Source: a virus
Lineage: Duplodnaviria; Caudoviricetes
Length of the DNA stretch: 64,000 nucleotides
Virus record (IMG/VR): IMGVR_UViG_2939702853_000005
Location: 1-64,000 of that record
Reading direction: 5' to 3' (one strand)
How positions within the stretch are numbered: position 1 is the first letter of the stretch; every line of letters starts with the position of its first letter. The notes under the pieces were generated by a model. It did not search any database. It was not told the DNA's origin and saw only the letters and a list, made by a program, of their open reading frames with translations. Of the stretch, positions 3,298-36,896 are shown piece after piece. Both the position numbers and the translations under genes were made by a program.

Positions 3298-4041
3298 TTA
3301 ATTTTTATCAACAACATGTCTCTCGACATTGAATTCACTAGAACGACCAGCAGAAAGAATATCAGTTCGTAAGCTCCTTTTCTTAGCCCAAGTTTGGCCT
3401 TCTTTGGGATTGGAGAGAGAAGGTAATTTCTTCGTTTTAACTGTCTGTATAAATCCCGGCTTATACCAAAGATCGCGCATCCTATACAAAATACGTTCTT
3501 CCTTATTACTCCAATTAGACCCAAACATTAATTGACCTAATTGTTCATCGGTTGGATTATTAATCCCTCGCACACTAAAGTATTTTCGTAAGCATTTCTG
3601 GAATTTATTAAAAACGGTTGCATCCGGTGTTAGAGGTAATGTAACAGATGAAACGAGAGTCTGGATTTCGTTTTTCCAATGTTGTTCATCTGCGACATTC
3701 TGAAGCATGGTAACGCCAGATTGCACATCTACAACGCCCTTAATAACATTGAAACGAATGATACATGTAGAACCTACAGACAATTTACAACCAGTAATCC
3801 TATTATGTAAAACAAAGTTGTATTTTAAATGTGAAGTATGGCACAATTGGCACATATCAGAAAAATCATCAGATGAAGAGTCGGCTATACCTTCAATTTC
3901 CCATTCTTTTTTGGCTTCTTCGAAATCACTAGCAGAACATCTTTCCAACATATTTTTGACGATTATGCCACTAGGGATTGAATTCTCAACCTTAGAATCA
4001 TATTTGACAACAATACGCTTCCTGCTATTAAAATTCTTCAG
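3298..4041 (-). CDS. Zn-binding hypothetical protein (CxxC..H..GSxCI), probable CTG start; moron inside the lysis cassette
   Basis: CQLCH and VGSTCI motifs; frame open 30 codons upstream of the track start (3951) to a CTG 9 nt after GGAGAG. Confidence 0.75.
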   Translation of the reverse strand: MKNFNSRKRIVVKYDSKVENSIPSGIIVKNMLERCSASDFEEAKKEWEIEGIADSSSDDFSDMCQLCHTSHLKYNFVLHNRITGCKLSVGSTCIIRFNVIKGVVDVQSGVTMLQNVADEQHWKNEIQTLVSSVTLPLTPDATVFNKFQKCLRKYFSVRGINNPTDEQLGQLMFGSNWSNKEERILYRMRDLWYKPGFIQTVKTKKLPSLSNPKEGQTWAKKRSLRTDILSAGRSSEFNVERHVVDKN

Positions 4042-19848: not shown

Positions 19849-21555
19849 TTAAGATAGAGCAGGGGAGACAGGGACAGGTAAGATGTTTAGTTGGGCAAGT
19901 TTTTCGTCAAGTATTTTTTCTATGTTGTCAAATTCGGTATACTTGATTCGTATCAACGGGATGTTATGTGATTTGCAGTAGTCATCTTTGATCTTGTCTC
20001 GTCTTCTTATATTGTTAAACGTTTTTTGCCCACCCCAATATTTAACAGGTTCGTAATGTTGTAGACCGTCAAATTCGATTAATAGAAGGGGTGGTAGATC
20101 TTTTCTCTCTAATACAGCAAAATCAAATTTAAGAGGAGTGCGATCCCTGCAATCCTCAAATTCAAATTGAGGTACATAAACATAGTTATTATTAGTCAAG
20201 TACAAACGAATCCGTTCTTCACCTTTTGATTCTGATTTCTTAGGTGGTCTACATCTGGGACAACGTGAACCTCCTTGAATCAAGTTAGAGGGAATAGTTT
20301 TGTAAACATGTCCACATTCAAGATGTTTGAGCTTTACCCTGTCTGAATCGGTAATGTATTCGCTGACTAATTGATACTCTCCTTCAGTCAACAAGTTAAC
20401 TTGTTGTGCGAACACTTTGGTGTCTTTTTTACAGTAACCGTGACAAATAGGACAGGATGCCTTTTTAAGAAGGTTGTATGCCGCTGTTTCAAATTCACAG
20501 CCACACTTAATATGCTTTATCTTCATTTCTGACACTGTGTTGATATATTTACTCAATATTTTATAATCATCGAAAAAGTTAGGTCTTCTTGAATTTAGAA
20601 CGTTGATAAACTCTTCATGACTATAAGAAATTCCACCCTTGCAAAAATGACATCTTTTTCCCCTTAAAAATGCCGATGGAGTAGTAGTGTAAGATTTACC
20701 GCATTTTCGGTGTTTTATACTAACATTAGCTCTGGCATTAATATACTCAGACATAAGCTCATATTCATTTTTAACTAATCTATACATCTCGTGTTTAAAT
20801 TGTTCAGTAGTCTTTTTCTGATTCCCAAAACAAATTGGACATCCAGTATTATATTTTACTCTAGTATACACATTTGAACACCAGCTATGACCTTTACTGC
20901 ATTTCCAAGCTACTTTAGCAGTAGAGGTAGCTAGTACTTCAGAAGGTTGGATCTCATTTTTATGATAATCCCATTCAACTAATAATTCTGGCGCTCTACT
21001 CTCTAAGGAATTGGTGTGATTTATTTTAGTGCTACTACAATACGGACAGCCACGCCCTTTATGCCTTTCTTTTGGTGTTTTCTCATAAATACTTTTGCAA
21101 TCTGTACAAATCCACTCATATTTTGTATGACTTGAACAATACACTTCGTAGGCTGAAATTTTGTTCTTGGTAATATTCCACTCATTAACTAACGATGGAT
21201 TGATATAACCAAAAGATCTTTCCAAGGGAACATTTCTCTTCCGGGTTATTCCCGATTTTTTGTTTGAGCAAATTATACATCTGTCCTTTCCGTCCCCGTT
21301 AATCCTGTTTCTAATAAGTGATCCATAGCCAATATTTTTAGTTTCATGACCGCATATATCACATATTCTTGTAATTTTATTTATTCCACTGGTCAATGAA
21401 AGGTCGGAAACCTTCGCTTTAATCTTAGTTCCTTTAGCAACAGATGTTCTGCCTTTCTTATCTAGCCTTCTAGGAATATGATATCCAAGATTCTCGTAGT
21501 ATGAAATTGTTGTAGGATTCAAAGTGACTTCAATATATTCCTCTTTAATAGCCAA
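19849..21555 (-). CDS. Multi-zinc-ribbon putative homing endonuclease with C-terminal PD-(D/E)XK/DUF2726-like domain
   Basis: Many CxxC/GCPYC repeats; SKGEERI..KFDFAV..LIEFDGLQHY..RDKIKDDYC..LIRIKY. Confidence 0.8.
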   Translation of the reverse strand: MAIKEEYIEVTLNPTTISYYENLGYHIPRRLDKKGRTSVAKGTKIKAKVSDLSLTSGINKITRICDICGHETKNIGYGSLIRNRINGDGKDRCIICSNKKSGITRKRNVPLERSFGYINPSLVNEWNITKNKISAYEVYCSSHTKYEWICTDCKSIYEKTPKERHKGRGCPYCSSTKINHTNSLESRAPELLVEWDYHKNEIQPSEVLATSTAKVAWKCSKGHSWCSNVYTRVKYNTGCPICFGNQKKTTEQFKHEMYRLVKNEYELMSEYINARANVSIKHRKCGKSYTTTPSAFLRGKRCHFCKGGISYSHEEFINVLNSRRPNFFDDYKILSKYINTVSEMKIKHIKCGCEFETAAYNLLKKASCPICHGYCKKDTKVFAQQVNLLTEGEYQLVSEYITDSDRVKLKHLECGHVYKTIPSNLIQGGSRCPRCRPPKKSESKGEERIRLYLTNNNYVYVPQFEFEDCRDRTPLKFDFAVLERKDLPPLLLIEFDGLQHYEPVKYWGGQKTFNNIRRRDKIKDDYCKSHNIPLIRIKYTEFDNIEKILDEKLAQLNILPVPVSPALS

Positions 21556-21910: not shown

Positions 21911-22645
21911 TTACATCATGTAAGCTTCAAGAACGATATAGTTAGAACTTTTTTTATCCAGAAGATCAATTGGTCTTTGTCCATTTTTATTCTTGATATT
22001 AGCATTCGCTTTATAAGTAATGCCAGTCAGTTCCCCTAAATAAAAGTTATTTTTATCTAAAATACTCTCATGCAATGGGGAATTTCCAAGTGAATTAACA
22101 AGGTTCACGTTCAACGCATTTTTCTTAATCACAAGGTATGTCGCATAATCATTCTTGCGAATTACCCAGTGCAGAATCGAATCACCATTTGCATCCTGTG
22201 AATTAATCGTTAACTCGCCACTAGCAATGGCTGCTGCAATCTTCTCTGAATCCAGCTTATCTCCTTTTGTATATTGATCCACGTTAAAAGTTTTTCCTCC
22301 TGACTTAACCGCTGTTGTTGCTGGCTCACTTTTTGTAGTTGTTGTAGCTGATGGAGTAGAGGAGGGAGTAGAAACCGTTCCATTACTTTTAACTAGCTCA
22401 ATTTTACCGCCACTGGCGCTTGCTACATTATAGCCCATTGCTGAAGCCGTATCTCTAAGAGGAAGATACGCTTTACCGTTCACATTGATCGGGCTGTCAC
22501 TGAGCTTTGCTTGTTCTCCATCAACTATGATCTTGGTGGGTGTCAATGTTGCTTTTAAATATGTACTTGCTCCTGCTACGCCACTAACTGTTACTGCAAC
22601 ACCAAATATTGCACCAGCAAGAAACGTTGGAATCCGCTTTTTCAT
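21911..22645 (-). CDS. Secreted stalk-domain (Cu-amine-oxidase N-terminal-like) plus ankyrin-repeat protein
   Basis: Signal peptide; VNGKAYLPLRDTASAMGYNV; GDSILHW, GNSPLHES, GQRPIDL ankyrin motifs. Confidence 0.85.
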   Translation of the reverse strand: MKKRIPTFLAGAIFGVAVTVSGVAGASTYLKATLTPTKIIVDGEQAKLSDSPINVNGKAYLPLRDTASAMGYNVASASGGKIELVKSNGTVSTPSSTPSATTTTKSEPATTAVKSGGKTFNVDQYTKGDKLDSEKIAAAIASGELTINSQDANGDSILHWVIRKNDYATYLVIKKNALNVNLVNSLGNSPLHESILDKNNFYLGELTGITYKANANIKNKNGQRPIDLLDKKSSNYIVLEAYMM

Positions 22646-22737: not shown

Positions 22738-22764
22738 AAAAGACCCTCAAAAATGAGAGTCTAA
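22738..22764 (-). terminator. Terminator after the kinase operon
   Basis: agactctca-tttt-tgagggtct followed by ttta on the minus strand. Confidence 0.55.
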
Positions 22765-22775
22765 ACAAAGCAATA

Positions 22776-22967
22776 CTAAAAAGTTTTTTTAGCATCAATT
22801 GGTTTTATTTTAACAAATCCATTTGCGTCACACTCTAGATTTAGATTGTTACGTAAATCAATGGATTCATTCTTTTTAAGTCTGTTAATCATTGGTGTAT
22901 CAGAGAAGGGATTAGCTAACTTTTTTCTTGTCAATGAGTTATTAGCTTGTTTGACAGTACTTTTCAT
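22776..22967 (-). CDS. Small basic hypothetical protein
   Basis: Strong RBS ggaggg; follows the kinase gene. Confidence 0.6.
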   Translation of the reverse strand: MKSTVKQANNSLTRKKLANPFSDTPMINRLKKNESIDLRNNLNLECDANGFVKIKPIDAKKTF

Positions 22968-23020
22968 AAGAAACCCTCCTTCCCTTACGATTATATCACA
23001 CTTTATGGGAACATGCGATC

Positions 23021-24052
23021 TTATAATTCCTTGATGAATTTAGCTAATTGTTTATAAGCAGCTTCCTTTTGATCATGAATCTTGAAACATTTTGTGATTC
23101 TTGATGCTCTTACCGTCTTTTTCGAATGGCTGTATCCTTCGATTTTCCATTTTCCTGAATCTTCGCATAGACTCAGTGTCTTAATGGTCTTATCACCTTC
23201 AAGTGACCACTGCTCTTTACCATCATTAATTGAATATAACCAATCAAGATTATCTGAAACAGCACTAATGCTATTCATTAGCTCCAATACGCTTTGGTAT
23301 CTTTTATCAGGATCAACTTCCAAAGCTTTTTTAATACTTTTCCTCAAGCTGTTCGGTATATGAGGAAGAAATTTGTCTCGTGAAGGAAATGTTCCGTTCA
23401 TAACATTTTTCTGAGTAAGAGATGTACATTGTGAATTAAAATCGTCGTTTCCATTGCACATCCGATATAGAGTCAACCCAGCTTGGTAAATATCATACTG
23501 ATTTGTCAGACTGGTGGTCACCAATGCATCTGGTACATAATGTTTCATATAGATTTTATCAGGAGATGCAAACCCATTAGCATCGGTGTATTTAGTAAGA
23601 CCAAAGTCAGTAAGAATCGCTTTATTAGAATCGTTAATTATAATATTGGTTGGTTTGATATCAAAATGGACAAGTTTCTTCGTATGTACAAAGTGTAGCC
23701 CACTTAAAAAATCAAGCGAGTATTTAACAATTTCTCTTACGCTCAAAAACCTCTTATTCATCAGAGTATTCAGTGAGCCTCTTGAATGAAACGGCATGGA
23801 TAGATATATCTTATCTGTATCTTCACAAGCGTAATTAATCACCATGATATTGGGGTGACGACCACTGTACAACATTTTAGACTCGTTAAAGTAATCTTCT
23901 TTCATTTGAAAATCAGATTTTGGAATTGATTTCACAACTATTTCAGCATCGAGTTGAGGGTCATGGGCAAGAAATGCTTTAGAATTAGCACCTTCACCAC
24001 CAATTTCTCTAATGAAATTAAAAGTTAATTGTGTTATAACTTGATGTGTCAT
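23021..24052 (-). CDS. Hanks-type Ser/Thr protein kinase, cytoplasmic, non-RD
   Basis: GGEGANS loop, VVK, alphaC Glu (NESKML), HFDIKPTN, DFG, DIYQAG; no TM segment. Confidence 0.92.
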   Translation of the reverse strand: MTHQVITQLTFNFIREIGGEGANSKAFLAHDPQLDAEIVVKSIPKSDFQMKEDYFNESKMLYSGRHPNIMVINYACEDTDKIYLSMPFHSRGSLNTLMNKRFLSVREIVKYSLDFLSGLHFVHTKKLVHFDIKPTNIIINDSNKAILTDFGLTKYTDANGFASPDKIYMKHYVPDALVTTSLTNQYDIYQAGLTLYRMCNGNDDFNSQCTSLTQKNVMNGTFPSRDKFLPHIPNSLRKSIKKALEVDPDKRYQSVLELMNSISAVSDNLDWLYSINDGKEQWSLEGDKTIKTLSLCEDSGKWKIEGYSHSKKTVRASRITKCFKIHDQKEAAYKQLAKFIKEL

Positions 24053-24531
24053 AGAATCACCTCTTCTTCTAATTCACTAGCTGCAACGGCGGTGATAATA
24101 CTTTCCCTTACGCCCTTGGCTGATTTACTAACTCCTTCAACATTCAATAATTCGTTATCACCATCAATAAAGTCCTTTATTTTTGAAGCAGTTTCTTCAA
24201 CCAAACTTGCAATCTTAGAAATTGTACCGAGAAAATACTTGTGTATGCTACAGTCGGCAAGCAATTCTTGAATTACCCCTTCTAAGTAGATTCTCTCAAT
24301 GCTCACATTCTGAGCAGTCCCTTCGTGAACCCTGATACCTGCATATACAACGGAATACTCAATAAAAATAGAATTGAGATTCGTTCTTACATAGGCCAGT
24401 TGATCAGGGACTTCTAAAGCTTTTGGGATAATAATTTTATCGTGGGTTAGAATTGATATCTCGTCTTCAATTTTTTCAGTTAAACAATAAAAAACTTCTG
24501 ATGGTGAAACTCGTATTCCTATTGATCTCAA
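24049..24531 (-). CDS. RuvC/RNase H-fold-like protein with degenerate catalytic residues
   Basis: SIGIRVSP (cf. LGIDPG), AGIRVHE, RESIITAVAA pattern; 4-nt overlap with the kinase start. Confidence 0.6.
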   Translation of the reverse strand: MRSIGIRVSPSEVFYCLTEKIEDEISILTHDKIIIPKALEVPDQLAYVRTNLNSIFIEYSVVYAGIRVHEGTAQNVSIERIYLEGVIQELLADCSIHKYFLGTISKIASLVEETASKIKDFIDGDNELLNVEGVSKSAKGVRESIITAVAASELEEEVIL

Positions 24532-24540
24532 AATTTATCA

Positions 24541-24625
24541 CTCCCCTATAGTTCTACTATACGACATATGGGAACATATTCCTACAGAACAAATGTTTGA
24601 TATAGTCGTATAGTAGGAGGGAGGA
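24541..24625 (-). promoter_or_regulatory. Leader inverted repeat with anti-SD and a LexA-box-like site
   Basis: ctactatacgac (24616-24605) / gtcgtatagtag (24565-24554) perfect 12 bp; ctccc versus SD gggag; GAACAAATGTTT at 24587-24598. Confidence 0.55.
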
Positions 24626-24650
24626 GAGAGAAAGATAGCAGTCTTAAGGA

Positions 24651-35686: not shown

Positions 35687-35860
35687 TTACTTAATCCAAC
35701 ACGTGATGTGGGGTTCCTGCCAGCGCTCTTTATTGAAAAGAAGAGGATTATTAGGATAATGTTTATGAGATGGGAATGTTCTATCAAAAGTAAGAAGATA
35801 AAATGCCGCAATCTCTTCGGATGTACCCTCGACTTTAATACCATTGATTTTAGCTTTCAT
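35687..35860 (-). CDS. Small hypothetical protein
   Basis: RBS aaggagg plus ATG (MKAKINGIKVEGTSEEI). Confidence 0.6.
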   Translation of the reverse strand: MKAKINGIKVEGTSEEIAAFYLLTFDRTFPSHKHYPNNPLLFNKERWQEPHITCWIK

Positions 35861-36896
35861 GTTCAACTCCTCCTTCGTCATCTTTACCAATATGGCTCTT
35901 CAGCTTGCCTAAACTCTTCCATTTACGATCTTTAGCTGTTAAATCGTTGTAGATACGATACATGTCGGCACTCGTCCAACCCATAAGTTCAATAATAAAG
36001 TCTGACTCAAGTCCAATACGAGTTAGGTTTGTAACTAGATAGTGTCGAAGGGAGTGAAAATAGAAGGGGGTCTCCAAAAACTTTTCCCACTTAGTACTCC
36101 AACTTCTAACTGTACCGACCTCTGCTGGCTCACCATCCGATTTAATAAAGAGGAAGTCATGTTCTTTATTGTTCTTCAGCATAATCTTTTCTCGTTCAAC
36201 GATCCAAGCTTGGTAATAAGGCCAGAACTTTTCTTTGAATATGTATTTATATAATAGCTTCCCTTGCTTACCAAAACCTTTAGTCTTAATTTCTTTAGTG
36301 GTTTCTAAGAATAGACCGTCAAAGGCCGTATTATTCTCATCAATAATCGAAGTTGTAAACCTCAGCAATTCAGAAACCCTTGCACCACTGTTTGCAGCCA
36401 AAGCGAGAAGACATGCTTCTTGAGGTTTATTCAAGTCATTACTCAAATGTTTGAGAAGGGCATCAACCTGTTCTTCGAGTAAAATAGTTTTCTCTCGAAC
36501 AGGATTATTCTTAAGGTTGTCAATCGATTTAAGAATAACATTACGGAAATTTGGATATTCATCATCAAAAAAGTTCTCAATAAAATTAGAAAAACTACTT
36601 AAACAAGATTTCATTCTACCGAAACGTTTGGGACTCCATTTAAGTTCTTCAATTGCATAACTAAAGAAATCAGAAAATTCTATCTTTTTAATGTCCACAA
36701 AGAACTTATTATCGTTCTCAAGGAGATTCCAAGTGAAAAATATATTCAAATCACTTTTATATCCCTTGATAGTTCCATCCGAGCATTTCATATTTTTTTC
36801 TTTTATAAAACGATTAATCATTTTAACGTTCTTTGGATTAAACTGTGCAGTTAATTCATCACTGGTGATTACTTTCATGTAAGTTTTTCTTGCCAT
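35850..36896 (-). CDS. Tyrosine recombinase (YomM-like)
   Basis: GARVSELL (R), TKG (K), FHSLRH (HxxR), LMGW (W), RIY (Y). Confidence 0.9.
   Translation of the reverse strand: MARKTYMKVITSDELTAQFNPKNVKMINRFIKEKNMKCSDGTIKGYKSDLNIFFTWNLLENDNKFFVDIKKIEFSDFFSYAIEELKWSPKRFGRMKSCLSSFSNFIENFFDDEYPNFRNVILKSIDNLKNNPVREKTILLEEQVDALLKHLSNDLNKPQEACLLALAANSGARVSELLRFTTSIIDENNTAFDGLFLETTKEIKTKGFGKQGKLLYKYIFKEKFWPYYQAWIVEREKIMLKNNKEHDFLFIKSDGEPAEVGTVRSWSTKWEKFLETPFYFHSLRHYLVTNLTRIGLESDFIIELMGWTSADMYRIYNDLTAKDRKWKSLGKLKSHIGKDDEGGVEHES

Follow-up and report, generated by a model that had tools for sequence, protein, structure and literature searches.

Phage 933W, a Shiga-toxin (Stx) phage, encodes Stk, a eukaryote-like kinase that, according to papers citing the primary work (Friedman et al. 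2011, PMID 21985444; Tyler and Friedman 2004, PMID 15150234), is activated on HK97 infection and plays a part in exclusion; it is reported to have limited if any activity before infection (PMC3681748). In lysogens, stk is expressed from pRM (PMC3430580), and Stk defence is treated in the literature as the work of one gene, the kinase. Staphylococcal Stk2 (Depardieu et al. 2016, cited in PMC9519451) is a Hanks kinase that follows the same logic, i.e., a phage protein activates it to cause abortive infection; no RuvC-like partner of Stk2 is known. PD-T4-6 (Vassallo et al. 2022, PMC9519451) is a single-gene defence of Escherichia coli that consists of a Hanks-type Ser/Thr kinase and is defined without a RuvC-like partner. 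Here, we analyze a three-gene cassette in a 64,000-nucleotide (nt) stretch of viral DNA, record IMGVR_UViG_2939702853_000005, which encodes a RuvC-fold pseudo-nuclease (P0001), a Hanks kinase (P0002) and a small Lys-rich protein (P0003). The whole stretch is referred to as the window, and coordinates are positions in it unless another locus is named. The cassette is borne by a Paenibacillus prophage; the nearest public proteins to the cassette products are from Paenibacillus.

We conclude that the cassette is likely a Gram-positive member of the 933W-type Stk abortive-infection family and a horizontally mobile three-gene anti-phage module, with the pseudo-RuvC protein and its small companion probably serving as regulatory subunits. 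For the window, this is mostly a correction, in that the cassette belongs to a known family and is not a new system. The range of a published, little-studied Stx-phage exclusion system is thereby widened to prophages of Paenibacillus and Bacillus and to chromosomal defence islands. The cassette also provides the clearest comparative evidence that, at the loci examined, the kinase is never found without a RuvC-derived pseudo-enzyme. A literature search found no paper on the RuvC-like partner or the third gene, and the three-gene architecture therefore seems unstudied.

Correspondence of the cassette to the stk operon of phage 933W

All three cassette open reading frames (ORFs) are encoded on the minus strand. 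The features of the cassette are as follows (aa, amino acids):

24532 to 24650, minus strand: leader between a 1151-aa tail gene and the cassette, read from the sequence
24049 to 24531, minus strand: gene 1, encoding P0001, the 160-aa RuvC-fold pseudo-nuclease, identified by phrog_3875, tblastn, fold and alignment
23021 to 24052, minus strand: gene 2, encoding P0002, the 343-aa Stk-clade Hanks kinase, identified by Pkinase, phrog_2361 and tblastn
23024 to 23263, minus strand: C-terminal domain of the kinase, residues ~264 to 343, delimited in the AlphaFold2 (AF2) model
22776 to 22967, minus strand: gene 3, encoding P0003, the 63-aa Lys-rich protein, identified by a GGAGG Shine-Dalgarno sequence and homologues
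22741 to 22762, minus strand: intrinsic terminator closing the cassette, with a 9-bp stem and a U-tract

This layout, including the 4-nt overlap of the first two genes, is as an earlier annotation, made from the sequence without database searches and referred to as the initial annotation, had described it, and all of its elements can be read in the sequence. Gene 1 has a TTG start with a GGGGAG Shine-Dalgarno sequence 9 nt upstream (24546 to 24541). Genes 1 and 2 overlap in the tetranucleotide ATGA (24049 to 24052), by which the kinase gene is translationally coupled to gene 1. The terminator hairpin is present in both the minimum free energy and the centroid folds (−14.1 kcal/mol for a 91-nt stretch; z −2.3), and the cassette is equipped with its own ribosome-binding sites and terminator.

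In a tblastn search of 50,697 phage records with P0001 and P0002, homologues of both proteins lay side by side in 41 records, i.e., 39 Stx/933W-like phages and the Bacillus phages SPbetaL6 and SPbetaL7. The cassette DNA matched none of the phage records, and the homology is at the protein level only. P0001 has 32% identity to ST933Wp23 of 933W (E 9e-15) and 40% to its SPbetaL7 counterpart, while P0002 has 39.5% identity to 933W Stk over 91% of its length (residues 9 to 320; E 4e-70) and 45% identity to the kinase of SPbetaL7. The gene order in 933W is cI, a DUF3024 gene, ST933Wp23 (153 aa, annotated "RuvC-like"), the overlapping stk (348 aa), ST933Wp21 (54 aa) and the terminator tM; in SPbetaL7, genes of 167, 350 and 60 aa follow one another, again with a 4-nt overlap between the first two. 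In phage phi24B, the gene 1 homologue is named res and is reported to be expressed in lysogens (PMC4651098).

Because of this homology and the shared gene order, we regard the cassette as the stk operon of 933W, carried by a phage of Gram-positive bacteria. The Stk-clade kinase including its C-terminal domain, the upstream overlapping RuvC-fold gene and the downstream small ORF with a terminator are all present, the terminator after gene 3 being the counterpart of the annotated tM, and both cassettes are prophage-borne. They differ in their surroundings: 933W carries its cassette in the repressor operon, whereas the cassette analyzed here resides in a tail-module island of a phage with a Gram-positive host. 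Moreover, no DUF3024 gene precedes the Paenibacillus cassette, and the third proteins are only weakly similar. The proposal in the initial annotation that the unit represents an undescribed system is therefore not upheld: it is the ST933Wp23/stk/ST933Wp21 operon, and the partner already has a family of its own, PHROG phrog_3875. The same annotation had cited 933W Stk as a precedent. That this kinase is a published exclusion kinase is correct, but it was invoked as an analogy only, whereas the two loci are the same operon.

The closest phage relatives are the cassettes of SPbetaL6 and SPbetaL7, whose products (WIT27998, WIT27997 and WIT27996, annotated as hypothetical) have 40%, 45% and 30% identity, respectively, to those of the window. 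The SPbetaL7 cassette likewise lies near a giant tail gene and is uncharacterised. In 933W, the DUF3024 gene that separates cI from the Stk cassette (positions 3592 to 3933 of locus L001) matches the PADLOC candidate PDC-S43 (E 4.4e-41); as neither the Paenibacillus nor the SPbetaL7 cassette contains it, this gene is probably a separate module.

Linkage of the kinase to its partner and genomic neighbourhoods

The distribution of the two genes was determined in three samples of 401 Bacillota genomes each, drawn by family, by phylum and by class, which partly share their genomes and all contain that of the window. Altogether, 11 distinct genomes have a true member of the P0001 family, and in 11 of 11 an Stk-clade kinase is encoded immediately downstream. 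The same gene pair was found in a Bacteroidales metagenome-assembled genome by a single-protein locus scan, whereas other scans of this kind returned no locus. Counting these 11 genomes, 933W, SPbetaL7 and the Bacteroidales genome, the kinase is directly downstream of the RuvC-like gene at 14 of 14 loci in three phyla. Conversely, an Stk-clade kinase at E ≤1e-30 was found in exactly those 7 of 401 Paenibacillaceae genomes that have the RuvC-like gene. In the phage database, kinases that are at least 39% identical have the partner, and the next-best kinases, at most 30% identical, match in the kinase domain alone. Finally, the pairwise identities of the P0001 and P0002 homologues at 11 loci are strongly correlated (r=0.95; Mantel p ~2e-4), which, because the loci are related, speaks for co-inheritance of the pair and not for independent events. 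The cassette is rare and patchily distributed, being present in the 7 of 401 Paenibacillaceae species. At one locus (G763:C71, 7020 to 8062; L034), a frameshift or sequencing error divides the Stk-clade kinase between two ORFs of 242 and 86 aa that lie in different frames; the RuvC-like gene and the small gene are intact.

In PADLOC, the best match of P0002 is mad6 (E 1.2e-37), the PD-T4-6 models match it at E ~1e-36, and there is no model for the partners. The likeness to PD-T4-6 is at the level of the kinase domain and in model scores only: the best PD-T4-6 model gives P0002 124 bits, as compared to 124.5 bits for Pfam Pkinase, and gives 933W Stk 128 bits. PADLOC also labels the housekeeping PASTA kinase of Streptococcus thermophilus PD-T4-6 (PMC11514479). 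On the basis of these model scores, which are at the generic Hanks level and no better for 933W Stk, and of the PASTA kinase labelled alike, PD-T4-6 was rejected as a specific identity. For the same reasons, it is barely credible that P0002 acts as a generic single-gene defence kinase of the PD-T4-6 type with unrelated ORFs on either side: the PADLOC matches that favour this idea are not specific, and unrelated neighbours would not show adjacency at all 14 loci or reciprocal presence. The mad6 match, whose score likewise equals the generic Pkinase score, spans residues 11 to 328 of P0002, i.e., beyond the kinase domain; however, MAD6 of the methylation-associated defence system MADS has ~610 to 660 aa compared to 343 aa in P0002, the other MADS genes are absent here, and with 100.9 bits the match to the NCBIfam model antiphage_MADS6 falls far short of the cut-off of 460. 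Because PADLOC lacks a model for the partner and gives the kinase the generic name PD-T4-6, the system is mis-annotated; the proper name for the kinase is 933W Stk family.

The cassette occurs in two types of neighbourhood. Prophage or integrase contexts were found in four genomes (G000, G279, G080 and G452). Among these, a related prophage in G279 carries the cassette in the same tail island, albeit at a different position, G080 has it beside a large serine recombinase and phage genes, and in G452 an integrase-like gene follows it. Elsewhere, the cassette is accompanied by defence genes: a complete type I restriction-modification system and PDC-M54A flank it in G261; two ThsB-like genes and a ThsA-like gene, i.e., a Thoeris-like set, lie near it in G298; in G088, it is just downstream of the Hachiman gene hamB, with a gene for a defence-type helicase further upstream; and in G375, PDC-M11A is closely upstream. 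Such mixed prophage and defence-gene neighbourhoods are what one would expect of a mobile defence module. Co-occurrence of the genes in other genomes, which the initial annotation had named as a check, is borne out by these loci, and the anti-phage role that it proposed is well supported by the full-length homology of the kinase to 933W Stk, the strict co-occurrence of the pair and the chromosomal copies in defence islands.

The three proteins and their possible interplay

P0001 matches PHROG 3875, named "RuvC-like Holliday junction resolvase" (E 1.7e-28), while no Pfam model, including PF02075, and no NCBIfam model matched it at E ≤1, PADLOC has no model for it, and a sequence search of the PDB with the P0001 family profile returned nothing. 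In an exhaustive HMMER search, grouping at 50% identity gave 267 clusters for the family, and in the 150 clusters listed nearly all members are stand-alone proteins of ~155 aa. An AF2 model computed with 121 relatives as input has a predicted local distance difference test score (pLDDT) of 93.7. With this model, RuvC structures rank first in Foldseek (TM-score 0.75 to 7w8d; E 1.7e-8), and in a VIA-align comparison with all representatives, RuvC of Pseudomonas aeruginosa (6lw3) aligns over 150 of the 160 residues with a Z score of 18.3 and a root mean square deviation of 2.7, well clear of the next class of matches. As judged from the model, P0001 has RuvC topology, i.e., an RNase H-like fold, over its full length. 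The relationship is also detectable in sequence: hhalign aligned the P0001 family with 14 true RuvC proteins over the full length (probability 96.6%; E 6e-10). The P0001 family profile picks up genuine ruvC genes, located beside ruvA, in 13 Bacillota genomes (per-genome E 1e-6 to 9e-4), and the family is therefore a remote, sequence-detectable offshoot of RuvC. Its fold resembles those of 6lw3, 4ld0, 7w8d and 1hjr, and the homology is of the remote, profile-level kind; by contrast with RuvC, at the loci examined the family is never beside ruvAB and always beside the kinase gene.

The former active site is where P0001 departs most clearly from RuvC. The catalytic tetrad of RuvC, in E. coli numbering, consists of Asp7, Glu66, Asp138 and Asp141. 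In the hhalign register, the catalytic Asp7 of RuvC is matched by Arg7 of P0001 and the catalytic Glu67 by Arg67. Arg7 is kept in 118 of 121 relatives, and position 67 is Arg or Lys in 121 of 121. Arg49, Glu70, Arg80, Glu84, Glu89 and Glu143 are nearly or fully invariant among the same relatives. In the C-terminal helix, the alignment puts Val141 and Ser144 on the last two catalytic Asp residues, with the conserved Glu143 one residue off, and the register is uncertain in this region. Because conserved Arg residues replace catalytic Asp7 and Glu67, P0001 is incompatible with the two-metal chemistry of RuvC, and its reading as an active resolvase was rejected on this ground. To judge from the alignment, the former active site of the family is derived and under selection, and not decayed. 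The RuvC topology with Arg at the first two catalytic acids had been noticed in the initial annotation, and both the structure search it called for and the family alignment agree with it.

These observations also bear on the idea that the genes serve the lytic cycle of the phage, the kinase as a takeover kinase similar to T7 gp0.7 and P0001 as a resolvase that debranches DNA before packaging. The location of the cassette within the late tail genes, with which it shares the strand and from which no upstream terminator sets it off, and the PHROG name of P0001 fit this idea. We nevertheless consider it very improbable: two of the four catalytic carboxylates of RuvC are replaced by conserved Arg, the same cassette is found outside prophages beside restriction-modification, Thoeris-like and Hachiman genes, its position differs between related prophages, and in 933W it is part of the repressor operon, with stk expressed in lysogens (PMC3430580).

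Alternatively, as in the first option of the initial annotation, P0001 could be a nucleic-acid sensor that binds recombination or replication intermediates of an infecting phage without cutting them and then activates the kinase. The full RuvC fold is retained, the invariant Arg at the former metal site could touch the phosphate backbone, and pseudo-RuvC domains that bind nucleic acids are known, e.g., that of Cas12k, which is among the structures in the P0001 fold list. However, P0001 is acidic, with an isoelectric point of 4.70 and a net charge of −11; the median isoelectric point is 6.3 in its family and 8.86 in true RuvC proteins, which disfavours generic DNA binding by P0001. Moreover, the conserved Glu70, Glu84, Glu89 and Glu143 lie beside the conserved Arg residues and may neutralise them. 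The 933W kinase is activated on HK97 infection according to secondary sources, and its trigger is reportedly a small HK97 protein. A nucleic-acid sensor is therefore an unlikely alternative to a P0001 that responds to a protein.

P0002 belongs to the Hanks kinases (Pfam Pkinase, E 6.7e-36; phrog_2361, E 4.2e-68). Lys41, Glu57, His129, Asp131, Lys133, Asn136 and Asp149-Phe-Gly are invariant in 114 relatives, and on the strength of these catalytic residues P0002 is predicted to be catalytically competent. It is a non-RD kinase because HFD replaces HRD, and it has VPD at the position of APE, which is PPE in the family and APE in most kinases. The AF2 model (pLDDT 93.3) shows an extra C-terminal domain of ~80 aa with six β-strands in a β-meander followed by a C-terminal helix (residues 272 to 343 in the model; pLDDT >95). 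The domain contains a conserved Trp271 and a second conserved Trp, and it can be aligned in all cassette kinases, including 933W Stk. Thus, the description of P0002 as a non-RD kinase with VPD in place of APE and an additional domain, first given from the sequence, holds in both the sequence and the model. The C-terminal domain has no Pfam match, and a sequence search of the PDB gave no meaningful match to it; hits to the designer propellers "Cake" and "Scone" were rejected as repeat artefacts, with no single stretch passing alone. A word-based search with the domain returned near-identical proteins only, the ESM Atlas gave nothing usable, and a Foldseek search of BFVD with the kinase returned generic kinases of eukaryotic viruses only.

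Pfam, NCBIfam and PADLOC contain no model for the 63-aa P0003. Homologues of gene 3 were nevertheless found by tblastn directly 3′ of the kinase gene in six genomes (G279, G261, G080, G375, G763 and G973), and P0003 matches its SPbetaL7 counterpart with a pairwise E of 4e-8. The 54-aa ORF of 933W occupies the same position, and its similarity to gene 3 is weak. Two motifs recur in the small proteins, LANP[FY] and [NST]G[FY]-x-[IV]-x-x-P[IV], which in P0003 read LANPF and NGFVxIxPI. In G452, a genome of high GC content, the third ORF (74 aa) starts with a CxxC...CxxC motif resembling a zinc ribbon and shares only the C-terminal motif (TGYVIVEPV) with the other small proteins.

We suggest that P0002 is a latent effector kinase that would be switched on after infection by another phage. 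Activated P0002 would then phosphorylate cellular proteins and the infection would abort, as shown for 933W Stk and as we infer for P0002. P0001 would act in stoichiometric amounts as a regulatory or sensing subunit and, as in RuvC, probably as a dimer; it would hold the kinase inactive and release or activate it when a phage-derived trigger binds to the former active site lined by the conserved Arg and Glu residues. The trigger is more likely to be a protein than DNA, because P0001 is acidic. The Lys-rich P0003 could be a further subunit, a modulator or a pseudosubstrate. The partner proteins make the question of Stk activation testable.

The arrangement of genes 1 and 2 also resembles that of a type II toxin-antitoxin module, with a small acidic upstream protein and an ATGA overlap with the toxin gene. 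According to this explanation, the kinase is a toxin and P0001 a labile antitoxin, the cassette mainly serves to maintain the prophage or island, and any phage defence is a by-product; strict co-inheritance of the pair and carriage on mobile elements fit this explanation. We consider this improbable. P0001 is, with 160 aa and a well-folded RuvC domain, unlike the small and partly disordered antitoxins and has no DNA-binding autoregulator domain. The third gene is left unexplained. Moreover, 933W Stk is reported to show limited if any activity until infection (PMC3681748).

Some observations weigh against the abortive-infection module as we describe it. First, what we propose for genes 1 and 3 is purely inferential, and within this family phage-triggered kinase activation with abortive infection is known for 933W only. 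Second, gene 3 is absent in a divergent subfamily (G088 and G298) and at the Bacteroidales locus. Third, cloned 933W stk may by itself be enough for exclusion, in which case the partners would modulate the system without being essential to it. Fourth, the cassette is on the late-gene strand within the tail module, and late transcription may read through into it because no terminator separates it from the upstream tail gene. A simple scan of the leader did not find a consensus sigma-70 promoter. For these reasons, the cassette may or may not be expressed in the lysogen.

A more far-reaching version of the abortive-infection module is that Stk defence is an obligate three-subunit machine, in which a nuclease-dead RuvC dimer senses a phage protein or branched DNA through its former active site with the conserved Arg and Glu residues and gates the non-RD kinase, with P0003 as a pseudosubstrate or adaptor. 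We put this forward tentatively and consider it more doubtful than not. If true, it would represent a new class of sensor in bacterial immunity whose conservation extends from phages of E. coli to the Bacillota and Bacteroidota.

Leader and neighbouring genes

The leader contains a perfect 12-bp inverted repeat, CTACTATACGAC ... GTCGTATAGTAG (24616 to 24605 and 24565 to 24554), with a 39-nt spacer. The repeat encloses the palindrome GGAATATGTTCC (GGAA-N4-TTCC; 24582 to 24571), which recurs in the leader of the closest related cassette, that of G279, as GGAAGATATTCC. A −10-like hexamer, TATAGT/TATGAT, is also common to the two leaders. The inverted repeat may be an operator or an RNA hairpin. 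The initial annotation had pointed to a LexA-box-like element in this leader. The motif, GAAC-AAAT-GTTT, is present (24587 to 24598) and has one mismatch to GAACN4GTTC, the Cheo box; however, the window contains 18 such one-mismatch sites compared to 19.7 expected, and the motif is absent from the G279 leader. LexA (SOS) regulation was therefore rejected, the box being at chance level and not conserved.

The tail operon of the prophage is interrupted by an accessory island of 6.4 kb, to which the cassette belongs, as follows from the genes of the structural (tail) module that surround it. The upstream neighbour encodes a 1151-aa minor tail protein (phrog_6211; E 6e-284), and downstream are genes for a secreted protein of 244 aa, an endonuclease-like protein of 568 aa and a homologue of Dit. 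The 244-aa protein (21911 to 22645, minus strand), encoded directly after the cassette, has a signal-peptide-like N-terminus, a Cu_amine_oxidN1 domain and weak ankyrin repeats and may be a surface moron; the G279 island has a 250-aa ORF whose N-terminus is likewise signal-peptide-like. The 568-aa protein (19849 to 21555, minus strand), encoded in the same island, contains two DUF4379 treble-clef zinc fingers and a DUF2726 nuclease-like domain and matches PHROG 559, "HNH endonuclease" (E 6e-97), with no match in PADLOC. It could be a homing endonuclease or a further defence nuclease, and the island counterpart in G279 contains a 530-aa ORF. Outside the island, a 348-aa tyrosine-integrase-like gene (35850 to 36896, minus strand; phrog_1, E 2.5e-31) is located just upstream of a 2330-aa gene, inside the apparent structural module.

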